Shown here in pieces: positions 2,612 through 64,000 of a DNA stretch of 64,000 nucleotides (its first letter is position 1; each line of letters begins with the position of its first letter). The notes under the pieces are model-generated. The model had not been told where the DNA came from. It did not search any database and worked only from the letters and a program-made list of their open reading frames with translations. The stretch is from Eledone cirrhosa (lineage: Eukaryota). Position numbers and translations under genes: made by a program. Location of the stretch: the NCBI GenBank assembly GCA_964016885.1, contig OZ024752.1:24986001-25050000 (forward strand), given 5' to 3'.

Positions 2612-5600
2612 TTCATCATCATCATCACCGTTTTACGTCCGTTCTTCCACGCTAGCATGGGTTAGACGGGTTGTCCTGTTGTGGGCAGTGTCTGGTCGGC
2701 TGACCATGCCTTGCTCATACAGGAACTGATTTGGCTTGCTTTCTACAGCTGGATGCCCTTCCTAACACCAACCTCATATACAGTGAGTGCTGGGTACTTT
2801 TTTTCCGTGGCGCCTACACGTCCACTTTATAGTGTGGGCTGGGTGCTTTTTTTCCATGGCACCTCCACGACCACCTTGGTGGGGGGCGTGGGGGCATATT
2901 GTCTATATGCTTCAGCTTGTACCCATGGGAGGTTGGGTACTCTGTATTACTGCGTGACGCCAGAAGTCACGGTCGTGTGTTATTGTCTTTGAGAGGTGTA
3001 ATTGGGTAAGGTCGGCTTTTATCACCTCATCGCAGGTCATCTTGGGTCTCCCCACTCCGCGGTTTCCATCAACTTCTAGTGCTCTGCACCTTTTTATGCA
3101 GCTATCATCCTTCATACGCATCACATGTCCATACCAGCGCAACCGCCTCTCCTGCACACAGCATTTGATTCCTCTTATGCTCAGTCTCTCTCTCAATTCA
3201 TTTATGCTTTGTCGTTCACGTATATTATTGTTACACATCCATCGGAGCATGCAGGCTTCGTTTCTCTCTAATCTACGTAAGTCTTCCACCTTCAGCGCCC
3301 AGGTCTCGCTACCATGCAACATCGCTGTTCGGATACACGCATCATACAGTCTGCCTTTCATTCTGAGGTAGAAGCCTTTTGCAGCGAGCAGTGGTAGTAG
3401 TTCCCTAAACTTCTTCCATCCCGTTCTTACCCTAGTTATTGCACTTTCTGAACACCCACCTCCGTTGCTAATTCGGTCACCTAGGTAACAGAAGCTGTCA
3501 ACTGTTTCTACAGGGCCCTCCCAGAGATTGGTGGTACTTGTTTCCTGTGGCTGTTTGCTGTTTGCTGTCTCAGCACAGCTGCTGCATGTTAATCCTACAT
3601 TCTTAATTAAGCTTCCTGAGATCCCGCTACATCTCTTGTGTACCCATTGTTTGCATTTGGGGCAGAGAATGGAGTTCCTACCTACACCTTTCCTACATAC
3701 TGAGCAAGGCCATTTCCCTGAGGGGATCTGGGTTCTGTTTTCTCGTCTACTTACAAGGACCTTAGTCTTTGTCATGTTGACTTTGAGACCCTTTCTTTCT
3801 AGTCCCTGCTTCCAGGTTTGGAATTTATTCTCTAGTTCTACCATAGATTCAGCTATGAGTGCGAGGTCATCAGCATACAGGAGTTCCCATGGGCATCCGG
3901 TCTTAAACTCCTCCGTTATTGCCTGCAGGACTATGATGAACAGGAGAGGGCTAAGAACAGAGCCCTGGTAGACCCCAACCTGTACGCTAAATTCCTCGCT
4001 ATACTCATTGCTAATCCTAACTTTGCTGACTGCTCCCCTATACATGGCTTGTACCGCTTTCACAAGCCATTCATCTACTCCTAGTTTTCTAAGAGCCCAC
4101 CAGATTACAGCGCGTGGAACTCTGTCAAAGGCTTTCTCAAGGTCGACAAATGTCAAGTAGAGTGGCTTACTTTTAGCGAGGTACTTTTCCTGTAATTGCC
4201 TCACAAGGAAGAGGGCATCAGTGGTGCCTCTTCCTGGTACAAACCCAAATTGCATCTCGTCTATTTTCACCCGGTCCCTAATCAGCTGTGCTATAACTCT
4301 TTCTGTTACTTTCATGACCTGGTCCATCAACTTTATACCTCTATAGTTTCCTCTATCTAGTGCATCACCTTTATCTTTGTAGCAGGCAGTTGACAATGAT
4401 GCTACTGCACCAATCTTTTGGTATGACACCTAGTATTACCTGGTTAACGATACGTATGCTATACCCGATGGACCGGTTGCCTTCCTCATCTTCATATCTT
4501 TGATTGCCTTACTTACTATGCTGCTGCTGACTTGTACTGCTGGCCCCTCTATAGGGTCTACTTGGGGTAGGGTCTCTTCTTCCCATGCATTCTGCTCATT
4601 TCGTAATCTATCATAATGGCTCTTCCATGCATCTTTCTTCTCAGCACTGTGAGGGCAAGCTCACCTTTATCATTCCAGATACACTTCTCTCCAATGACAT
4701 CACAATTCTCTCTGACACGCTGCCTCGCAATCTTGAACACCTCCTGTTTCTGGTCCTCACGTTGCAAAACATGCTTGAATTTCCTATCCTCTGCTTCCCT
4801 CCTAGCTCAGTATACTTGTCGCCTAGCTTCCCTCTTGGTCTCTATGTAATGTACCCTGCTTCCCCCGTTCTTCCATTCTTTCCATGCCTGTCTCTTGGCC
4901 TTAACTGCCTCATCTACCTTATTGTTCCACCACCAAGTCACTCTCCTCCTGCTTGTAGTCTTACTCCAGCCACAGATCTCATCCGTCGCCTCTAGTAAGT
5001 TATTTTTTAGGAACTCCCAGTGCTCTTCTATATTGAATGTGTCTATTTGTTCTTCTTTACTGTCGTAGGCGTTGAGTAAAATATCTTTAAATCTGTTACT
5101 GACTGAGGGGTCTTTCAGCTTCCAGATCTTTCTTCTCCAGGTTGGCCTTTGTTTCCATGTTCGTCTAGTTCTGACCGTGATGTCGCTGACAACTAAGCTA
5201 TGTTGGGAGGTACATTCCTCACTAGGGAAGGCTTTTGTGTTTATGACCATCCATCTGTCACGTCCTCTGATGAGGATAAAATCTATCTGACTAGAATGCT
5301 CCCCTGATCTATAGGTGATCAGGTGTTTGTCGGGTTTTTTGAAGTTTGTGTTACATATCGACATGTCTTTGGCGTCGCCGAATTCTAGAACTCTGAATCC
5401 TTCTTCATTTCTTGTGCCAACCCCATTGCGTCCATGGACTCTATTGAAGCCATCACAGTGTTTACCTACGTGTCCGTTAAAATCTCCTGCAATGATTAAG
5501 AAGTCATTGTCGTTTGTTAGAGCAGTAGTGTGCATTAGGGACTTGTAAAACCTATCCTTAAGTTCGTCTGGCAACCCCGATTGAGGTGCGTAAGCTGATA

Positions 5601-6608
5601 CTATTGTGGTAATTGTTTTATTCAGGTCTAGTCTGAGTTTAATGATTCTTGCATTTACCCTTTTCACTGAGATTACTTTATCTACCCACTTGTCAGCAAG
5701 TAGAATACCTACTCCACCCATCCCATCGTCATTTCCCACCCAGAAAAATTTGTAACACTGACTTTTTCCAACAAGGACTCTAGCAGACTCTCCTCTCCAT
5801 CTAGTCTCTTGCACACAGCATACATCAATTTCCTTTCGCTCTAGCATCTCTATGATTTCGCCTGCTCTTCCTTTCATTGTGCTTACATTGATGGTACCAA
5901 CTCGGAGTTTTGGGCATTTATCAACATTCGTGGCGAAGGGTCGATTTTTGCAGAATTGAAGCTTCACATGGGTGCTTGGTAGCTCGCGGATCCATATTCA
6001 TTTTCATATATTAATTCAGGGTTGCTCCATTTATTCTCAGCTCATCCATACATAACGGTAGGAAAATTCAGGGCTAGAAGAAAAGTGGTGGTGGTAATAA
6101 TGGAAGGGTGTGTTGGGCTGGGACGGGGGAGGAGAGAGGTAGGTAGTAGTAGAAATGGCAGGATTTGTTGGGGTTGGTAGTGGGTGTGGGGGGCATGCTG
6201 AGGTTTGATTGGTCGAATAGGCTATGGTGGTGTGAGGGGGTGGGCGGGGGGAAATTGTGAGGTAGGTAGCCAAATCATAGCCTGTAGCATCTCATTGCAA
6301 AATAGACCGATAGGAGTAGATCACTTTGAAGAGAAAGTGAACTGATGAATAAAACAACACTAATAATAGTGTAAGAGAGGAGAGTAGATGACTTCGTAGA
6401 GAGACAGCATGGTAGAGAAAATGAGGGTAAATAATTAATGTGTTGTGGAAGCTAGTGAAGTGATAAATACAGCAACAATTGTGTGAGCAGAACATTTGCA
6501 ATTGGGGAAATAGAGGGATACCTGGAAGATTTGGATGGATGGATGGCTGGAACATGGTTAAGCAGCTCTAGTAATTCATTTTAGCCTTTCAGAGTCAAGT
6601 GTGTCTTA
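2612..6608 (-). mobile_element. Near full-length RTE-clade LINE (subfamily A), frameshifted
   Basis: EN ORF 4807..5967 (GTINV, VQET, GDFNGH, IDFI); RT ORF 2912..4429 ([24 protein letters not shown]); (CAT)n 3' tail at 2613-2627; 5' UTR matches 43330-43900. Confidence 0.95.
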
Positions 6609-16839: not shown

Positions 16840-18440
<1,601 letters not shown>

Positions 18441-37788: not shown

Positions 37789-40418
37789 TATCATCATCAC
37801 CGTTTTACGTTCGTTCTTCCACGCTAGCATGGGTTAGACGGGTTGTCCTGTTGTGGGCAGTATCTGGTCGGCTGACCATGCCTTGCTCATACAGGAACTG
37901 ATCTGGCTTGATTTCTACAGCTGGATGCCCTTCCTAACACCAACCTCATTTACAGTGAGTGCTGGGTGCTTTTTCGTGGCGACTACACGTCCACTTTACA
38001 GTGTGGGCTGGGTGCTTTTTTGCCGTGGCACCTCCACGACCACCTTGCGGTGGGAGGAGTGGGGGCATATTGTTTATATGCTTCAGCATGTACCCATGGG
38101 AGGTCGGGTACCCTGTATTACTGCGTGACGCCAGAAGTCACGGTCGTGTGTCATTGTCTTTGAGAGGTGTAGTTGGGTAAGGTCGGCTTTTATCACCTCA
38201 TCCCAAGTCATCTTGGGTCTCCCCACTCCGCGGTTTCCATCAACTTGTAGTGCTCTGCACCTTTTTAAGCAGCTGTCATCCTTCATACGCATCACATGTC
38301 CATACCAGCGTAACCGCCTCTCCTGCACGCAGCATTTGATTCCTCTTATGCTCAGTCTCTCTCTCAATTCCTTTATGCTTTGTCGTTCACGTATATTACT
38401 GTTAAACATCCATCGGAGCATGCAGGCTTCGTTTCTCTCTAATCTACGTAAGTCTTCCACCTTCAGCGCCCAGGTCTCACTACCATGCAACATCGCTGTT
38501 CGGATACACGCATCATACAGTCTGCCTTTCATTCTGAGGGAGAAGCCTTTTGCAGCTAGCAGTGGTAGTAGTTCCCTAAACTTCTTCCATCCCGTTCTTA
38601 CCCTAGTTATTGTACTTTCTGAGCACCCACCTCCATTGCTAATTCGGTCACCTAGGTAGCAGAAGCTGTCTACTGTTTCTACAGGGCCCTCCCAGAGATT
38701 GGTGGTACTTGTTTCCTGTGGCTGTTTGCTTGCTGTTTCAGCACAGCTACTGCATGTGAATCCTACATTCTTAATTAAGCTTCCTGAGATCCCGCTACAT
38801 CTCTTGTGTACCCATTGTTTGCATTTGGGGCAGAGAATGGAGTTCCTACCTACACCTTTCCTACATACTGAGCAAGGCCATTTCCCTGAGGGGATCTGGG
38901 TTCTGTTTTCTCGTCTACTTATAAGGACCTTAGTCTTTGTCATGTTGACTTTGAGGCCCTTTCTCTCTAGTCCCTGCTTCCTAGTTTGGAATTTCTTCTC
39001 TAGTTCTGCCATAGATTCAGCTATAAGTGTGAGGTCATCTGCATACAGGAGTTCCCACGGGCATCCGGTCTTAAACTCCTCCGTTATTACCTGCAGGACT
39101 ATGATGAACAGGAGAGGGCTAAGAACAGAGCCCAGGTGGACACCAACCTGTACGCTAAATTCCTCGCTATACTCATTGCTAATCCTAACTTTGCTGACTG
39201 CTCCCCTATACATGGCTTGTACCGCTTTCACAAGCCATTCATCTACTCCTAGTTTTCTAAGAGCCCACCAGATTACTGCACGTGGAACTCTGTCAAAGGC
39301 TTTCTCAAGGTCGACAAATGCCAAGTAGAGTGGCTTACTTTTAGCTAGGTACTTTTCCTGTAATTGCCTCACAAGGAAGAGGGCATCAGTGGTGCCTTTT
39401 CCTGGTACAAACCCAAATTGCATCTCGTCTATATTCACCCGGTCCCTAATCAGCTGTGCTATAACTCTTTCTGTTACTTTCATGACCTGGTCCATCAACT
39501 TTATACCTCTATAGTTTCCTCTATCTAGTGCATCGCCTTTACCTTTGTAGCAGTTGACAATGATGCTACTGCACCAATCTTTTGGTATGGCCCCCTCTAG
39601 TATTACCTGGTTAACGATACGTGTGGTTATAGTGTGACCTACAGACCCAGATGCCTTCAGCATCTCGGCAGCTATACCCGATGGACCGGTTGCCTTCCCT
39701 ATCTTCATATCTCTGATTGCCTTACTTACTACGCTGCCGCTGACTTGTACTGCTGGTCCCTCTATAGGGTCTACGTGGGGTAGGGTCTCTTCTTCCCATG
39801 CATTCTCCTCATTTAGTAATCTATCATAATGACTCTTCCATGCATCTTTCTTCTCAGCACTTGTGAGGGCAAGCTCACCTTTATCATTCCGGATACACTT
39901 CTCTCCAATGACATCACAACTATCTCTGACACACTGCCTTGCAATCTTGAATACCTCCTGTTTCTGGTCCTCACGTTGTAAAACATGCTTGAATTTTCTA
40001 TCCTCTGCTTCCCTCCTAGCTAAGTATACTTGTCGCCTAGCTTCCCTCTTGGTCTCTATGTAATGTACCCTGCTCCCCCCGTTCTTCCATTCTTTCCATG
40101 CCTGTCTCTTGGCCTTGACTGCTTCATCTACCTTATTGTTCCACCACCAAGTCACTTTCCTCCTGCTTGAGGTCTTACTCCAGCCACAAACCTCATCCGT
40201 CGCCTCTAGTAAGTTATTTTTTAGGAACTCCCAGTTCTCTTCTACGTTAAATGTCTCTATCTGTTCTTCTTTACTGTCGTAGGCGTTGAGTAAAATATCT
40301 TTAAATCTGTTACTGGTTGAGGGGACTTTCAGCTTCCAGATCTTTCTTCTCCAGGTTGGCCTCTGTTTCAGGGCTCGTCTAGTTCTGACCGTGAGGTCGC
40401 TGACAACTAAGCTATGTT

Positions 40419-40419
<1 letters not shown>
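37789..40419 (-). mobile_element. 5'-truncated young RTE-A copy inserted in a TA microsatellite
   Basis: Uninterrupted 690-aa ORF, complete 3' UTR and (CAT)n tail. Confidence 0.95.
38083..40155 (-). CDS. RTE ORF remnant: linker, reverse transcriptase with embedded Cys/His finger, C-terminus
   Basis: [46 protein letters not shown]. Confidence 0.9.
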
Positions 40420-40476
<57 letters not shown>

Positions 40477-40485
40477 TATATATAC

Positions 40486-40519
<34 letters not shown>

Positions 40520-41233
40520 GTATATGTGTATATATATATATATATATGTGTGTATATGCATATATGTGTGTGTGTATATATATTTATATATGTATATGTT
40601 AAACCGGTGTTGACATGTCACCAGGAGAGGAGATGATAGCTACGTTAGAAAGTGCTATCAGAATGAATTTTTTGCTAAACTGCCATAGAGCGGACCTCCC
40701 AAGAGTTAGAAGGATATCATTTACAGAGCTTGCTTGAATACCCGTGCTTAGATTGGAGAGAATTGCTCTGGACAGGAAAGTTGATATCTAGTTTACCAAT
40801 ATAGAAATATAAAATTTCCACTGTTAAATCTATCTCTGCTTCTAAAGTATTCTGTATTATCTCATACAGTTTCTTTTTCATTTCAGAATACCAGATGACA
40901 GTGGCATAAATTATTATTTTCAATCTTGGATACATCACCTCTATTTATCATAATTTTAAGACTAAAACATTTTAACCAGAACTTATATAACACTGTTTAT
41001 ATAAATCTGTAGTTCAATTACTGTGAAATATTTCCTCAAAACTGAGTTTATTTTCATCACTATGAGATGATTTTGTGTTTTAACTAAACATGGGTGAAAC
41101 AAAAGTTTGTATTATCTTCAGATATTAACTGAAATCACAGTTGAGAGAAATATAGAAGAAGAAATAATTTTAGGAATATAATATAAGAAATATTACAAGT
41201 AAAACATTTGTATATTCTGTTGAGGAAAAAATC

Positions 41234-42259
41234 ATGGAAAATATGTTGACTGAGAAGATTAAATGTGAAACACAATCTAAAGTGTTTAGTATTCCTGGTG
41301 AGATGAGGAAGGTTAGAGAAGAGAAGCCATATCACTCTGATATCTGTGGTAAATCATTCAATAAACGTAATACCTTAATTACTCATAAAGTTATACATAC
41401 AAGAGAGAAGCCATATTGTGATATATGTGGTAAATCATTCTCTGATGGTAGTACATTAACTACTCACAAACGTATACATACAGGAAAGAAGCCACATCAC
41501 TGTGATATCTGTGGTAAATCATTCTCTGATAGTAGTGCCTTAACTAGTCACAAGCGTACCCATACAGGAGACAAGCCATATCACTGTGATATCTGTGGTA
41601 AATCATTCTCTCAGAGTGGTACCTTAACGTCTCACATACGTACCCATACAGGCAAGAAGCCATACCACTGTGAAATCTGTGGTAAATCATTCTATGATGG
41701 TAGTGCCTTAACTACACACAAACGTATACATACAGGAGACAAGCCATATCACTGTGATATCTGTGGTAAATCATTCTCTGATAGTAGTGCCTTAACTAGT
41801 CACAAACGTACCCATACAGGAGACAAGCCATATCACTGTGATATCTGTGGTAAATTATTCTTTGTAAGTAGTCACTTAACTAGACACAAACGTACACATA
41901 CAGGAGACAAGCCATATCATTGTGATATCTGTGGTAAATCATTCTCTGATAGTACCACCTTAACTAGACACAAAAGTACCCATACAGGAGAGAAATCATA
42001 TCACTGTGATATCTGTGGTAAATCATTCTCTCGGAGTGGTACCTTAACGTGTCACAAACGTACCCATACAGGTGAGAAGCCATATCACTGTGATATCTGT
42101 GGTAAATCATTCTCTTGGAGTAGTACCTTAATGTCTCACATACGTACCCATACAGGTGAGAAGCCATATCACTGTGATATCTGTGGTAAATCATTCTCTC
42201 AGAGTGGTACCTTAACGTCTCACATACGTACCCATACGGGTGAGAAGCCATATCACTGA
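41234..42259 (+). CDS. C2H2 zinc-finger protein, cassette copy 4 (11 units, 10 intact); best candidate functional gene
   Basis: 341-aa ORF of tandem C2H2 fingers with conserved Cys/His. Confidence 0.88.
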
Positions 42260-55865: not shown

Positions 55866-56789
55866 TATATATATATATATATATATCATCATCATCATCA
55901 TTATATATATATATATGTGTGTGTGTACTCGATTGTACCATCAATTTCCGAGGGTCCGTGTGAATATGTCATTTATTTTGTCTGACCCGTTTAGCTTGAC
56001 TCGCTTTTTTGGGTTAGGTGATTAATGGCTTCTTGACCGTCTTCTCAGTTTGTATGGCCTTTATAAGCTATGCTTATTGCTTTGGTCTCTTTAGCCCATG
56101 GAATGCTTGCCAGCATGACTCGGAATTTGCGCTGCGTTTCGCTATTTCTACCCGCCAAAATGCGATTCTCACTGAATATATATAGTAGTAACCTATATTC
56201 TGTAACTGAATATATAATGTAGTAACCTATATTCCGAGGACTCATGGATACATTCTCCGTGCGTTATTTGGCTCAGTTCAACCAATCGCTACCAGCGAAG
56301 CAAAATGTATCTCACTGGGAAAACAACAACTGGACTTGTCAGCATTTCCACCATTTCTCCTATGGATTCGCCAGAATTATAGAATTACCACTTCAACTAC
56401 TACCCACCTACATATTCAACTTACTTTTTTTTCAAAGCAACTAGCCATTTTTTCTTGGCTGCCTAGCACCTGCGGCAATTCATCTGCGAGGCGGTTCCGC
56501 CGCCGACCCTTAAGGTTGCGAGTAGGCGCCGGGGAAACCGACCGCCCACGGTTATAATTACTCGGCCAGGGGGTCCTGTCTATTATATAGAGTAAGCTTG
56601 ATCGGACGAGCACGAAGAAAACGGTTACGGGTGCTATGCGTTGCGGCTTGTGACTATTCCGTTTTCAAGGCAGGTACGTGCCGGCTTACCCTATGCGATG
56701 TCGGCTGTCTCCGTCTCGAACGATATGTCGACCTGTACTCGTCCGCCCCGCCTGCACGTTAACGCCCGCCCTCCGCCTGAGCCCCTTCT

Positions 56790-58118
56790 CCCGCTCCAGC
56801 GCCATCCATTTTCGGGTCCGGTCGATTCGGCAGGTAAGTTGTTACACACTCCTGAGCGGATTCCGATTTCCGTGGCCACCGTCCTGCTGTCTATATCGAC
56901 CGACACCCTTTCGGGGATCTAATGGGCAAAGCGTAGGGCACCTTAGCCGGACGTTCGGTTCATCCCACATCACCAGTTCTGCTTACCAAAAGTGGCCCAC
57001 TTGGCACCGTGCATTCGTCGCCGAGACGGCGGCCGCCTCCGATCGGGAGAGAAAGCGGCCCGTTTCGCCCATTCCGAGTTCGAGAGTAGATCGAGGCCGT
57101 CAACGTCCCCGACTGGGACTCCTCGGTCCGTGTTTCAAGACGGGTCGGGTAGGTTGCCGATGCTCGTCGCAGACCTGCAGCAGCGGACGGCTCGTGATCC
57201 TGGTCCGCCCAGCGACCCGCTCACTCCTGCTCCGCAAAGAGAGCAAAAGAGAAAAAGCAAACGGGGCGAGCGAACGAGGCGGCCGCTTTCTCGAAAGCCG
57301 ATCAGACATTTTAAGGATATAAAAAACCGACCTAAGCATATACGAACGGCGCTGCGGCTGATAAAGGAACACGCGCGTTTGTCCCGTCCCCGCCTGTTAG
57401 CCGTGCCTGGGACGATGAAAACCACCGCCGAGCGACGGGCCTGGTCGAGAGAAGCGCTGTTTTCGGAAACCCGCTTCGAAAGCGAACCGGGATGGTTCGT
57501 TTTCTAGGCGGGCCACCGCTCTGCGAACTGCGGACACTGCGCGCCATCCAGCCTGACGGGAACGGGTCGCTACCACGGATCGAAGGGGAAGTGTGTCCGA
57601 TGCCGGCACCCCGCGAATCGTAACGCCGGCGAGGCGGTCGGCGGTCCCCTCGCGATCGCGGTGAATGGTCCTACCCGTTTAACCCCTGGGCGGTTTCACG
57701 GTCTCTTGAACTCTCTCTCCAAAGTTCTTTTCAACTTTCCCTCGCGGTACTTGTCGGCTATTGGACTCGTCCCGGTATTTAGCCTTGGATGGAGCTTACC
57801 ACCCGCTTTGGGCTGCGTTCCCAAGCAACCCGACTCTCGGGCCGAAGAAAGAGACACTGTCGATCGCCGCCGGCTCTGAATGGGCCTGGCACCCGCTTTG
57901 GGCAGCCCCGATCGAGGGGACTCCGAACCTAGCCGGGCGAAACGAACGACCGTGTACGACCCTTGCGCCACAGCTCTCGACGACCTGCTTGCGGACGACG
58001 AGATTCAGCGTTGGGCTCCTCCCAGTTCACTCGCCGTTACTAAGGGAATCCCGGTTGGTTTCTTTTCCTCCGCTTAGCGATATGCTTAAGTTCGGCGGGT
58101 AGTCGCGTCCGAGTCGAG
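56790..58118 (-). rRNA. 28S rRNA 5' portion, inverted, with an internal deletion near 57113 (pseudogene)
   Basis: ACCCGCCGAACTTAAGCATA, GAAAAGAAAC, GTCTTGAAACACGGACC, GGTAAGCAGAACTGG and AAAATGGATGGCGCTGGAGC on minus. Confidence 0.92.
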
Positions 58119-58349
58119 GGCAGCTATTCGCATACGCCGAATACGCTGAATACGAAGAACGACGAGGACGGTAAGAAGAAGAAGGCGGCATTGATAAAGA
58201 AGAGGTTGGCGGCGGGCGCCGAGGCGGAATGTGGAAAAAAACGAGAGAAATGGGAAAAAAAGAGGCGGCATCGAAATCGTTTCTCGTCGGTCGACACGAA
58301 GGCTTTGTGTTTTTGGCGACTCGCAGAGCGAACGCCGGCCGACGAACAA
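58119..58349 (-). other. Probable ITS2 3' part
   Basis: Non-conserved sequence immediately 5' of the 28S start on minus, ending at the inversion breakpoint. Confidence 0.55.
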
Positions 58350-59232
58350 CGTACCTTCGGAAGAAGGATTGGCTCCGAGGACCGGGTCGGTCGGGCCGTG
58401 TGTGTGTCGGCCTGTCGGCCGTCTTGTTTTTTTTTCCAAAAACTCGGGATCGGTCGCGCGGCACGTCTGTACGCGAAGCGGTGAACCGGTACGGGGCTGT
58501 AGCGTTGGCGTCGGACTCGACGTTCGAGCGTCGGTCGGGTGGTCGATTTGCGCCCGTTTCGTTTGCGTTCGTTTCGTTTTTCCTTGCCCTTCTTTCGGTT
58601 GGCGGCGAGGAGAGAGAGGAAGAAGGCGGCGGCGGCTGCGGGTTGGTCGCGCGGAGGCGGACGGGGTTTGTTGAAAGATTACCGCGGAGGAGGGATGAAG
58701 GCGTAGCAGTGGACGGAGGGGGAGGAGACGCTTGTCGCTCGCAAGGGCGGTTTGTGTTTTTTTTTTTCTTTCGTTTTTCTGCTCGCTTTTGTTTTGTTCT
58801 TTCGGTTTTTTTTTTCTCTTTACCTTTACTGTTCGTCGCAGTGCCGGCGGCTCGCGCGTCGTCGTCGTCTTTTTTTCTTCGTTTTCTTCGTTTTTGTCGG
58901 TCGGAAACAAAAACGGGGGGCTTGGAGAGGCGCTAGCTTGGCGTTGGCGAGCGGCGTTTCGGTCGGTTACTTTTTGCGACGTTCGATGCGTAGTGGGCGC
59001 GAACAACACGGCTCCACGCCCGGGACACCGTGGAGCGACACGGCTTCGGGCTCGTTGGCGCGTCGGTTTGCTTCCTTTCTTTCTTGTTCGCGAGGAGGAG
59101 GGCGGTTGCCGAGACGCGCGGCAGGCGTTCGGCCGGCGGCGAACGGTCAACTCGGAACTGGTACGGACCGGGGGAATCCGACTGTCTAATTAAAACAGAG
59201 CATCGCGTAGCCGGCCGAGCCGCATAGACGCG

Positions 59233-59264
<32 letters not shown>

Positions 59265-59280
59265 AGTGAAGAAATTCAAC

Positions 59281-59318
<38 letters not shown>
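58350..59318 (+). rRNA. 28S rRNA central portion (expanded D8) up to the R2 target site
   Basis: AAGGATTGGCTC, GGGAATCCGACTG, CAAGCGCGGGTAAACGGCGGGAGTAACTATGACTCTCT. Confidence 0.93.
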
Positions 59319-59553
59319 CTTTGCGGCGCCACCCTTGACGTGGGAAGAGAGCTTAAATCCGTGGTTAGAGCTATACGAGTGAGTCAGCCCGACGCATTTC
59401 TTTTTGCGGTTTAACGCGTTACCGTACCTTTGGACGTTTGACTCCTTTCAGCTGGGGCCGGGGGGTCGGTTCCGGGGTGCGGGTTCGGGTTGACTCGGTA
59501 GGTTTTACCATACTCGGTTGGTCTGCCACATTAAGGATGAACTAATTGGCGCC
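59315..59553 (+). ncRNA. Predicted HDV-like (CPEB3-like) self-cleaving ribozyme with enlarged P4
   Basis: P1 CTCTCTT/AAGAGAG, P2 GGCGCCA/TGGCGCC, P3 CCC/GGG, L3 TTGACGT, P1.1 G-C, J4/2 CTAA (C59542). Confidence 0.65.
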
Positions 59554-60500
59554 TAAATTATGATTGTAATAATTATATAAAAATCATATATCCGTACGGT
59601 AGCTGGGGGCCGTTTTTAAACCAGTAACCGAGGGGTTGGGATGGGCCCCTTAGGTTTACTAACTACGGCGGGCCGCTGTGGTGGCTCCGTGATCATTACA
59701 GTTGGGTGTGATGGGATGGGGAGTCGCCGTGGTGGCTTGCTGTGGTACTAAACCACCCTCGAGGGCTGACACGGAGCCGGGATACGCCCTCTGGATTAGA
59801 GCCGGCTCAAACCTTTTTTTTTGTGGGCGCGGAAGTGCCTTGAAACTCTCTCCCTAGTTTGTTTTTTTTTATTAACTCGGTGAGCGGTCGGATATAATAT
59901 CCGAGAAGGAAAGGTAAGACGCCTCCGCCGTTCCGCTAGTCTGGTGGTTCGCCTTGGGAAAGCGATAGTACCACCTTATCCCCCCCGTCGCAGGGTTACG
60001 CGTTGCTTAAAGAAAAGCGCTCCTTTTTCTTTTTTTATTTTTTGAACTATTATTATTAACAGTTTCGTTAATAATATTTTATGAATAGGTAGGGAGTGAT
60101 AAAATGGCTTCTGGAGCGCCCCACAATTTTTTTTTTTTTTTTATAGAGTACGATGTATGACCAGGGAGTTTGGTGCCTCCCTGCGCGGGATTCGGGCAAC
60201 AGGATCTCCGCGCGGGGTTCGGTTCCGGATGCTTACTTGGTGCGTACAACCAGATTGACAAAGTGGCACGGCCGGGAGGGCTTAGTGTCTTGCATGGTTC
60301 GCTCGCTGAGGTGGCTCCCAGCCAGCACTCGCGAGGTCCATGGCTTGGCCTGCTCTTTTGGCGTGACCAACCAAATTTGACTGGGCACGCCGTTCATGCC
60401 ATTGTTGCTTGATGACGTTGGCCCGTGGGACCACCCACATTAAACAAAGGGAAAGGCGGCTTATACTTTGCAAAAAGTATTAGCTAATAGCCAGCTAACC
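59319..60500 (+). mobile_element. Non-coding 1,182-bp insertion at the R2 site of 28S (putative non-autonomous R2/SIDE-like element)
   Basis: 28S breaks after GACTCTCT and resumes at TAGCCAAATGCC (60501) with TAAGG lost; no ORF longer than 80 aa in the track. Confidence 0.85.
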
Positions 60501-60540
<40 letters not shown>

Positions 60541-60575
60541 CGGATCAACGAGATTCCCACTGTCCCTATCTACTG

Positions 60576-60610
<35 letters not shown>

Positions 60611-60617
60611 CGGATCG

Positions 60618-60657
<40 letters not shown>

Positions 60658-61194
60658 TTTTGTGAGGGCACACGGTAGGCGTAGCATAGGCGGGAGCAAT
60701 CTTGCGTCTCTCGGCTGGCGGCAGCGTCGTTTGCGGGTCGCTTGCGGCTTTGCGGCGGCGTTCGCCGTCTGTCGGGTACCGTGCGCGTTTGCGTCGATGA
60801 AAAACCGCCACTTCCGTAGTTTCTTCGCTCACTCGATTGAGAAGGGACGGGGCCGTCGCCGAGCGGTGGTTCATTTATCTGGTGCGAAGCGTGCGGTGCA
60901 TGTCGCGCGCGCACACGTTGTGCGCCGACGCAGCCGATGCGCGACCCTTAGTCGAGAACAGTGTCGGTCGGGGAGTTTGACTGGGGCGGTACGTCTGTCA
61001 AAGGGTAACGCAGGTGTCCCAAGGCGAGCTCAGCGTGGACGGAAACCACACGTTGAGCAAAAGGGCAAAAGCTCGCTCGATCTCGATTTTCAGTACGAAT
61101 ACGGACCGCGAAAGCGTGGCCCATCGATCCTTTCCGAATAGCGGCGAGCTATGCGTCCGCCGAGAGGTGTCAGAAAAGTTACCAAAGCGGCGTC

Positions 61195-61232
<38 letters not shown>

Positions 61233-61274
61233 CGAAGCAGAATTCGCAAAGCGTTGGATTGTTCACCCACTAAC

Positions 61275-61321
<47 letters not shown>

Positions 61322-61870
61322 TCCTACCGATGCATTGCGTGTAGGCGGCGGCGGTGGCGGCTGCAGCCACCTTCTCGAAGGCGGCTGCGGTCGGCGTCGC
61401 CGCCGGCAACGTCAACTCGGCTACGGCTATCCCGTCCAGTACGAGAGGAACCGCGGGATCAGAGCAACGGTTTGCGCGCTCGCTCGATAGAGCGGTGGTG
61501 CCAGGCTGCCTCTGAGCGATAACGGCTGAACGCCTCTAAGCCGGAACCGTAGCCGGACCCGAGTTGTTTTTCGAAAGCGTCTCAACCTTCTTAAGGCGCA
61601 TGCCTTAGTTTGGCGATTGCCGTCCGTTCGGCGAAGTCGCTTCCCTTTTCGGGGTGCGCGTCGTCGTCGGCGGCAGCGTCAGCGGAATTGCCATTCTGTG
61701 ACGATTGCGACGATTCGTCGTCGTTGTCGTCCGTTCGATTTGTCGAAAGAGATCGAGACGAAAAGGATCGCTTGTATACGACTCGACTTGCCGTTCGGAG
61801 TGACGTGCTTAGTAGAGCAGCTACCACACTGCGATCTATTGAGTCTCTTCTCACGAACGACACGATCCGC
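60501..61870 (+). rRNA. 28S rRNA 3' portion with a deletion in the peptidyl-transferase centre (pseudogene)
   Basis: GAAAGAAGACCCTGTTGAGCTTGACTCTAG, GATGTCGGCTCTTCC, sarcin-ricin loop AGTACGAGAGGAACC at 61438-61452, GCGATCTATTGA near the 3' end. Confidence 0.93.
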
Positions 61871-62214: not shown

Positions 62215-64000
62215 TAGAGAGAGTTCGCGGTGAATGCGACGACGACACAGCCTTGATTCGAGTGACGCCGCCGCCGCCGCCGATCCGTCTTCCGAGTTGC
62301 TTATTTTTTTTTCGTATGTTACACGTAGAGAGAGAGTTCGCGGTGAATGCGACACGGCTTTCGTTAGAGTGCCGCCGCCGATCCGTCTTCCGAGTTGGTT
62401 ATTTTTGCGTGTGATACACGTAGCCGCCGCCGCCGCCCATCCGTCGTCCGAGTTGGTTAGTTTCGCGTATGTTACACGTAGAGAGAGAGTTCGCGGTGAA
62501 TGCGACGACACAGCCTTGATTCGAGTGACGCCGCCGCCGATCCGTCTTCCGAGTTGCTTATTTTTTTTTCGTATGTTACACGTAGAGAGAGAGTTCGCGG
62601 TGAATGCGACACGGCTTTGGTTAGAGTGCCGCCGCCGATCCGTCTTCCGAGTTGGTTATTTTTCACGTGTGATACACGTAGCCGCCGCCGCCCATCCGTC
62701 GTCCGAGTTGGTTAGTTTCGCGTATGTTACACGTAGAGAGAGAGTTCGCGGTGAATGCGACGACACAGCCTTGATTCGAGTGACGCCGCCGCCGATCCGT
62801 CTTCCGAGTTGCTTATTTTTTTTTCGTATGTTACACGTAGAGAGAGAGTTCGCGGTGAATGCGACACGGCTTTGGTTAGAGTGCCGCCGCCGATCCGTCT
62901 TCCGAGTTGGTTATTTTTCACGTGTGATACACGTAGCCGCCGCCGCCCATCCGTCGTCCGAGTTGGTTAGTTATGCTTGACGCGTAGCAGGCGGATTCTG
63001 TTTCGTGTGTGTGTCTGTGTGTGATGCAAGCCGCCCATCCGTCGTCCGAGTTGGTTAGTTATGTTTGACGCGTAGCAGGCGGATTCTGTTTCGTGTGTGT
63101 GTCTGTGTGTGATGCAAGCCGCCCATCCGTCGTCCCAGTTGGTTAGTTATGTTTGACGCGTAGCAGGCGGATTCTGTTTCGTGTGTGTGTCTGTGTGTGA
63201 TGCAAGCCGCCCATCCGTCGTCCCAGTTGGTTAGTTATGTTTGACGCGTAGCAGGCGGATTCTGTTTCGTGTGTGTGTCTGTGTGTGATGCAAGCCGCCC
63301 ATCCGTCGTCCGAGTTGGTTAGTTATGCTTGACGCGTAGCAGGCGGATTCTGTTTCGTGTGTGTGTCTGTGTGTGATGCAAGCCGCCCATCCGTCGTCCG
63401 AGTTGGTTAGTTATGCTTGACGCGTAGCAGGCGGATTCTGTTTCGTGTGTGTGTCTGTGTGTGATGCAAGCCGCCCATCCGTCGTCCGAGTTGGTTAGTT
63501 ATGCTTGACGCGTAGCAGGCGGATTCTGTTTCGTGTGTGTGTCTGTGTGTGATGCAAGCCGCCCATCCGTCGTCCGAGTTGGTTAGTTATGCTTGACGCG
63601 TAGCAGGCGGATTCTGTTTCGTGTGTGTGTCTGTGTGTGATGCAAGCCGCCCATCCGTCGTCCGAGTTGGTTAGTTATGTTTGACGCGTAGCAGGCGGAT
63701 TCTGTTTCGTGTGTGTGTCTGTGTGTGATGCAAGCCGCCCATCCGTCGTCCGAGTTGGTTAGTTATGTTTGACGCGTAGCAGGCGGATTCTGTTTCGTGT
63801 GTGTGTCTGTGTGTGATACAAGTTATGTTTAAAGTGCTAGCCGATGATGGTGTGTGTGTCTGTGTGTGATACAAGTTATGTTTTAAGTGCTAGCCGATGA
63901 TGGTGTGTGTGTCTGTGTGTGATACAAGTTATGCTTTAAGTGCTAGCCGATGATGGTGTGTGTGTCTGTGTGTGATACAAGTTATGCTTTAAGTGCTAGC
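62215..64000 (+). repeat. rDNA intergenic spacer subrepeats: 255-bp composite (~3 copies), 88-bp (~10 copies), 53-bp (to window end)
   Basis: Periods measured directly (62472/62727; 63001/63089; 63815/63868); located downstream of the 28S 3' end. Confidence 0.85.

Follow-up and report, generated by a model that had tools for sequence, protein, structure and literature searches.

An R2-site insert in truncated ribosomal DNA

The window (the whole stretch of 64,000 nucleotides that was analysed) holds a rearranged piece of ribosomal DNA (rDNA) with an insert at the R2 target site of 28S, and the 5' end of this insert together with the adjoining 28S forms the fold described below. The features, in order along the window, are as follows.

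56792..58351, minus strand: inverted rDNA piece, the end of ITS2 and the 5' part of 28S, missing ~0.5 kb internally
58350..59321, plus strand: the 28S 3' half that lies upstream of the R2 site; 963 of 969 aligned bases agree with the complete unit next to it
59299..59317, plus strand: native 28S hairpin, whose 3' arm overlaps P1, a predicted competitor
59314..59315, plus strand: predicted self-cleavage site, before C1, placed from geometry and relatives
59315..59321, plus strand: P1 5' strand, from 28S positions -11 to -5
59322..60500, plus strand: non-autonomous R2 element (SIDE), 1,179 nt, no long ORF
59325..59331, plus strand: P2 5' strand, six firm pairs and a loose seventh position, partner 59547-53
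59332..59344, plus strand: P3-L3-P3' (CCC UUGACGU GGG), with P3 at 59332-34/59342-44 and L3 at 59335-41
59345..59353, plus strand: P1 3' strand (AAGAGAG) and the 3' side of P1.1
59354..59541, plus strand: P4 domain, 188 nt, with a U59354-A59541 pair
59542..59553, plus strand: J4/2 with the predicted catalytic C59542, then the P2 3' strand
60501..61868, plus strand: 28S on the downstream side of the R2 site, lacking 34 nt through a deletion at 61184

In the Rfam LSU alignment, 28S flanks a gap of 1,182 nt at the R2 site, and the insert at 59322-60500 has no long reading frame, which excludes a coding role. Its 5' part (to about 59809) corresponds to the 5' end, the first ~490 nt, of an R2 lineage from the same genome (lineage B), and its 3' part (from about 59813) to the lineage-B 3' UTR; the lineage-B ORF has been lost at the join (about 59809-59813), and both ends match lineage-B R2 at 69-90%. 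Insertion at the R2 site, a canonical 3' junction (at 60501), an R2 ribozyme joined to a 3' UTR with the ORF gone, and several independent insertions with varying junctions are the features of a SIDE, and all were found here. The insert is an R2-site element derived from a full-length R2 by gene loss, i.e. a SIDE.

Judged from its sequence, the copy in the window sits in a truncated rDNA pseudogene. No 18S or 5.8S was found in the window, and the 34-nt deletion is absent from all 14 other units that were checked. The next rDNA unit along the contig is complete and holds another SIDE copy. The truncation and inversion of its rDNA unit make it probable that the window copy is silent and not transcribed, and a function would apply to the family. 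The region 56486-58351 is the left edge of the rDNA array, in which a spacer-like repeat piece and inverted ITS2/28S are joined to the 3' half of 28S, and past the 28S lie spacer subrepeats (62216-64000) with 255-bp (2.9 copies), 88-bp (10 copies) and 53-bp units. We also noted two long C2H2 zinc-finger array frames (17087-18364 and 41174-42259) and two LINE copies (2912-5997 and 38083-40617), each with a reverse transcriptase followed by a PHD finger.

Two full-length R2 lineages, A and B, are present in the genome; they encode zinc fingers and a reverse transcriptase, share 48% amino-acid identity, and bear the same ribozyme. The best PDB matches of the lineage-B protein were R2 proteins (E 1.6e-114), a protein search returned only three distant relatives at about 30% identity, and the lineage-A 3' end gave no BLAST match to the SIDE. 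A whole R2 frame (1,214 aa, lineage A) was seen at only one of 13 loci checked, L133:764-4405; no whole lineage-B ORF was seen in the nine loci with that lineage, where the longest frame had 995 aa. The L133 frame, which lies in 28S, has three zinc fingers, a reverse transcriptase and an endonuclease motif and is a candidate for an active element of lineage A. An ATG follows P2' by 6-13 nt in both lineages. SIDE, lineage-B and lineage-A copies are stacked head-to-tail at several loci (L042 on C2, L043-L045 on C18, L050 on C7 and L138 on C3), and lineage-A 5' ends bear a short copy of the downstream 28S target, which may regenerate the target for further insertions in front. Near-full lineage-B copies also lie outside rDNA (L134 and L135, on C5 and C18); the element 3' end abuts unrelated sequence there, and on this sequence evidence they are off-target insertions. 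A ribozyme fragment from L3 to J4/2, likewise outside rDNA (L051, about 3900-4100, on C12), is flanked by a ~14-bp direct repeat resembling a target-site duplication.

An HDV-like fold with two reversed pairs

An earlier note on this DNA had described an HDV-like arrangement in the order P1-P2-P3-L3-P3'-P1'-CU-P4-CUAA-P2', and every element was found, at the coordinates listed above. Together they make a nested double pseudoknot with P1, P1.1, P2, P3 and P4 in HDV-like order. P1 (59315-21 with 59345-51) consists of seven of seven Watson-Crick pairs; its 5' strand, which had been called 28S-like, is derived from 28S and is in fact 28S itself. The P1 3' strand is followed by the CU dinucleotide (59352-53), in which C59352 pairs with G59337 to form P1.1 and U59353 faces U59336. 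In HDV position numbering, which we assume to apply to this fold, G59337 is G22 of P1.1, and U59335 and G59340 form a predicted reverse wobble; C59542 we take, by analogy, to be the general acid. The first pair is C1-G and the P1.1 pair is G22-C38, whereas canonical descriptors demand G1-Y and C22-G, and the fold is therefore classed as a variant rather than a canonical HDV-like member. Published descriptors fix both G1-Y and the P1.1 C-G (PMC6326823), G1 appears among the invariant nucleotides in one account (PMC8495972), and the 5' purine is termed a structural requirement in another (PMC11331408).

The remaining helices mostly agreed with the earlier description. P2 pairs where it had been placed, but the seventh of its claimed base pairs (59331/59547) forms in only 18 of the 27 rows compared below and is unpaired in 9/27, so that P2 is best taken as a helix of 6 bp with one loose position beside it. 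The U before P2' that had been called atypical is unremarkable: this fifth J4/2 base varies (U, G or A), and one extra J4/2 position belongs to the HDV-like motif as described in PMC10879173. The P4 domain, put at ~190 nt, measures 188 nt and folds as claimed (-79.9 kcal/mol; 200 dinucleotide shuffles give z = -4.8), with helices ATCC/GGAT (59357-60/59535-38), GAGTCAGCCCGA/TCGGGTTGACTC (59381-92/59485-96) and GTGG/CCAC. It comprises a covarying base helix, a conserved UAA/GAA internal loop and a long variable distal part. We do not regard its length as a novelty: P4 spans 100-244 nt across copies, and R2 P4 is known to be 'highly variable' (PMC3774820).

A descriptor search, which the earlier note had proposed, returned a single match in the window (59332/59542) compared to a mean of 0.03 in shuffled sequence (n = 30), using a relaxed HDV descriptor that was composed with the hit known and permitted the P1.1 pair in either orientation. 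Taken with the shuffle comparison for P4, this rules out a chance fold. Rfam gave no ribozyme family in the window at the gathering score and, in two ribozyme regions searched at E up to 10, still none at the fold; the CPEB3 ribozyme likewise had no Rfam match to it. Nested folding, a model outside which pseudoknots lie, favours the native 28S hairpin (59299..59317, presumably helix 69) over P1, and cleavage may therefore be slow or context-dependent.

Compensatory change and the register of the predicted cut

Forty ribozyme rows were gathered, and dropping four without a J4/2 match left 36 rows with 26 distinct cores. Pairs were counted on 27 of the 40 rows, six rows truncated in P2 and three near-duplicates being left out as well. 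Across the 42 named pairs, 93.0% of cells were paired, versus 82.8% when shuffled and 33-45% when slid. Both-sided change was seen in 20 of the 42 pairs, including all seven in P2, and the P2 changes amount to about four or five events, not 27. The covariation score was reached by none of 500 shuffles, in a test that is inflated by the relatedness of the rows. P2 occurs as GGCGCC/GGCGCC, GGCACC/GGUGCC, AACGCC/GGCGUU and CCACAC/GUGUGG, and the base of P4 as AUCC/GGAU, GUCC/GGAC, GUCA/UGAC and AUUC/GAAU. In lineage A and in the SIDE, each P2 strand forms 6-7 of 7 pairs with its own partner but 1-2 of 7 crosswise. The covariation analysis that had been suggested thus gave a divided answer: P2 and the P4 base covary, whereas P3, P1.1 and P1 hardly vary in the genome and therefore show conservation, not covariation. 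At the level of sequence comparison, these data establish that the fold has been maintained by compensatory change in two R2 lineages.

Within the core, G22 was kept in 25 of the 26 distinct cores and C38 likewise in 25/26; U20 was present in 26/26 and G25 in 25/26. All four bases occur at L3 position 23, and the rest of P3, L3 and the CU barely varies. C59542 was invariant in 32 of 32 aligned rows (in the 36-row set the predicted catalytic C belonged to the anchor), the J4/2 adenosines were kept in both R2 lineages, and P1' stayed complementary to 28S -11 to -5, including a U-A to U.G change. The swapped P1.1 pair reported earlier is therefore real and kept in both lineages. The C at position 1 is present as well, as a lineage-wide oddity rather than one peculiar to a single copy. 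Since C1 and G22-C38 are found in both R2 lineages, they do not reflect decay of the window copy, and a copy-specific origin is excluded.

In plain-junction copies the predicted cut corresponds to 28S target position -11. We examined the register because the CU in these copies could face -12 and -13, so that the RNA would start with a purine. In such a register, the same ribozyme would have P1 extended by A.C and G.U, G22 would wobble with U, and the cut would fall before a purine at -12/-13. It would satisfy the 5'-purine rule, the target bases -12 and -13 can face the conserved CU in plain-junction copies, and cutting at -13 is known for R2 (PMC3774820); however, it requires a P1 of 8-9 bp, and R2 P1 helices are typically 6-7 bp as described in the same paper. 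The symmetrical UAA/GAA loop and the U-A pair immediately 5' of the predicted catalytic C (the base after CU with A, in 27/27 rows) suit -11.

The junctions themselves can be read in more than one way. The 5' junction is plain in 10 of 17 rDNA-flanked SIDE and lineage-B rows, and the window copy has 2 extra nt in a dinucleotide repeat. Duplications in 4 of the 17 rows start at -25, -25, -20 and -21 and are longer than a cut at -11 supplies; one of these four rows also holds a piece starting at -13, which speaks for the shifted register. Duplication length has been tied to the cut site, and long 28S-like additions are described in sea squirt junctions too (PMC3774820). Five non-rDNA copies that retain part of P1 begin at -9, -9, -9, -10 and -11, and none of the five clearly has 28S further upstream; since 5' truncation is frequent, these ends give a lower bound. 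One of them, the ectopic L134, is ambiguous: a start at -13 followed by the loss of 2 nt would explain it too.

Relatives outside the genome bear more directly on the register. We sought a generic core (CCC UUGNCGY GGG N6G CU UAA) and found it in 109 metagenome stretches, of which 80 were examined; because G37 is fixed by this pattern, the matches do not bear on whether the two flips are coupled. A 7-bp P1 lay upstream in 54 of the 80 stretches (shuffled flanks 1.4, maximum 6), and P1, P2 and J4/2 were all present in 46 of 80, compared to 0 in 200 shuffles. The J4/2 pattern used here (R-A-C-N-A-A) was the third and was picked after inspecting the misses of two earlier ones, which needed GAA before C and matched only 6/80. 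Replacing the catalytic C in the pattern by A, G or U gave 0, 0 and 1 matches. The matches fall into clusters of related copies, and their distinct P1 helices number 11. Among 37 distinct relatives, position 1 was C in 37/37, and position -1 was U in 35, A once and never G. Since -1 is never G, the CU cannot extend P1; with P1 always starting from C and -1 mostly U, the helix stops at C1-G37, freeing C38 for G22. On these alignments, the metagenome relatives favour cleavage 11 nt upstream of R2's target site; we consider the -12/-13 register unlikely.

In the genome itself, 27 of 27 exact matches to the generic core carry the R2 P1' strand. The exact R2-type core was found in no metagenome contig, and the generic core in no viral contig. 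The 400-nt flanks of the metagenome relatives contained no 28S, and Pfam matched none of 56 frames (56 of the 89 listed, from 25 loci). Dozens of these loci (L139-L218) hold compact HDV-like folds with the flipped core, L139 and L159 having a minimal P4 hairpin. Two related AT-rich loci apart from the main cluster, L190 and L198, also have the flipped core, with a 3-nt J1/2 and a GAA-CUAA junction resembling the R2 form.

The fold might instead be kept as a structural element (in R2 protein binding, RNA stability or translation start) that cleaves poorly or never, with RNA 5' ends arising from other processing, e.g. at -25, the 5' edge of the 28S hairpin. In favour of this, the fold departs at two positions that the literature gives as conserved, the native hairpin competes with P1, duplications start from -25 in two rows, and the R2 ribozymes of silkmoth and horseshoe crab are described as showing little or no cleavage in vitro. 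Against this stand the retention in both lineages of the predicted catalytic C, of U20/G25 and of the J4/2 adenosines, the continued complementarity of P1' to 28S -11 to -5 even through the U-A to U.G change, and the precedent of active fungal ribozymes with C-G at the cut (PMC5640933). We therefore regard a non-cleaving fold as quite unlikely.

Spread of the family and comparison with known systems

A search of the 3.0-Gb genome, in which 40 of 51 candidates were scored, found at least 12 near-full SIDE copies on six contigs, each covering at least 1,180 of 1,221 query bases. These copies are 89.4-97.9% identical to the window copy, while the upstream 28S is 99.4-100% identical in nine rDNA-flanked copies (ten were compared, the tenth being ectopic). 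One copy, L012, sits in a (CA)n tract with an exact element 3' end and no rDNA, and some copies are near-identical duplicates (C4, C12 and C25). The divergence of the elements against uniform flanks, the varied junctions and L012 point, as far as sequence comparison goes, to spread by repeated retrotransposition with some later duplication. It is very improbable that the SIDE is dead and owes its multiplication solely to duplication, as DNA, of rDNA units with inserts, its ribozyme being an inherited relic: such a history has been proposed for a degenerate R2 of a stick insect (PMC4370867) and would fit the near-identical duplicates, the lack of an intact parent ORF at the nine lineage-B loci and the pseudogene unit in the window, but not copies that differ by 2-6% plus indels from the window copy between nearly invariant 28S flanks, the several distinct 5' junctions, or L012.

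We therefore return to the self-cleaving reading and consider it likely that the 5' HDV-like fold of the SIDE is a ribozyme that cuts at -11, with C1-G37 beside G22-C38. The proposal of the earlier note, an R2-type 5' ribozyme that uses 28S as P1 and would cut near 59314/59315, is backed by its context, by compensatory change and by the outside relatives; that note had recognised neither the carrier as a non-autonomous SIDE nor its rDNA unit as a pseudogene. In intact rDNA units, RNA polymerase I would read through the insert, 28S positions -11 to -5 would quit the native hairpin and pair as P1, C59542 would serve as general acid, and the freed RNA would begin with 7 nt of 28S. R2 protein from elsewhere would bind the SIDE 3' UTR and copy the RNA into a further R2 site. 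The cDNA would then anneal upstream through its 7 nt of 28S, yielding uniform junctions without target positions -4 to -1, and slippage in the dinucleotide repeat would yield +2 junctions such as that of the window copy. The reversal of the two neighbouring pairs at the P1/P1.1 stack, relative to G1-Y and C22-G, may keep a purine-pyrimidine stack. Read-through, folding with 28S as P1, cleavage at -11, mobilisation in trans and cDNA annealing follow the model set out in PMC3774820, and all of these steps are inferred by analogy for this SIDE.

The R2 5' ribozymes described by Eickbush, Burke and Eickbush (2013, PMC3774820) likewise have a nested double pseudoknot at the 5' junction, a P1 from 28S, a variable P4, and mostly uniform junctions with occasional 28S duplications. 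The text of that paper gives cuts at 0 and from -9 to -36, specifically -13, -25, -27, -28 and -29, whereas the cut predicted here is at -11 before C (its figures may show -11). Other differences from the ribozymes described there are the G at L3 position 22, with C as its partner, and the very short J1/2 (2-4 nt) of the SIDE and lineage B.

The R2Dwi_SIDE of Drosophila willistoni (Eickbush and Eickbush, 2012, PMC3414825) is, as described, also a non-coding R2-site element that joins a 5' ribozyme to a 3' UTR, both of R2 type, has diverged from its parent and varies at its junctions. It measures 529 bp, compared to 1.16-1.24 kb here, and takes its P1 from the element and not from 28S. The present SIDE further differs in having no poly(A) tail at the 3' junction, a non-insect host and a ribozyme activity that is only predicted.

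Fungal HDV variants (Li and Breaker, 2017, PMC5640933) share the C-G first pair and are shown to cleave at the P1 base. They also have an internal loop in P4, called loop E, and an extra nucleotide between P2 and P3, of which the conserved UAA/GAA loop at the foot of P4 and the loose seventh P2 position seen here may be counterparts. Unlike the fold here, they have no described tie to R2 or rDNA. The mammalian CPEB3 ribozyme (PMC4836649, PMC9901934) resembles the fold in its 7-nt L3, in a P1.1 of one Watson-Crick pair plus U.U, and in a P4 pair directly before the catalytic C, but it has C22-G37 in place of G22-C38, starts with G and has a short P4. Compensatory double mutants of its single-pair pseudoknot are described as showing rescue, the G-C swap itself not being named in that text (PMC9901934).

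R2 ribozymes with a 28S P1, SIDEs and C-G variants are each already known. No natural G22-C38 ribozyme, nor this element, was reported in the literature searched, though one may be present in figures, in subscription papers or in the supplements to PMC3774820 and PMC5640933. Within the same scope, neither their combination in an animal R2, nor the reversed P1.1 pair, nor the -11 site was found. We lean towards reading C1-G37, G22-C38 and the UAA/(G)A loop as one coupled, inverted-core HDV-like subclass, shared by the R2 lineages and unrelated non-rDNA metagenome elements (these probably being the fungal variants), which descriptors built on G1 and C22-G miss and whose R2 members would cut before a pyrimidine at -11.

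The SIDE places such an element outside Drosophila, the only genus for which R2 SIDEs are reported in PMC3414825, where they are called uncommon. It also lends itself to a double-mutant test for coupling between the flip of the cleavage-site pair and that of the P1.1 pair. If the reading is true, standard searches miss a class of ribozymes, and an R2 cut before a pyrimidine would bear on R2-based insertion templates, whose 5' ends are designed around a purine as described in PMC11331408. Two positions of the HDV fold held to be 'invariant' would then be loosened in a natural animal retrotransposon.
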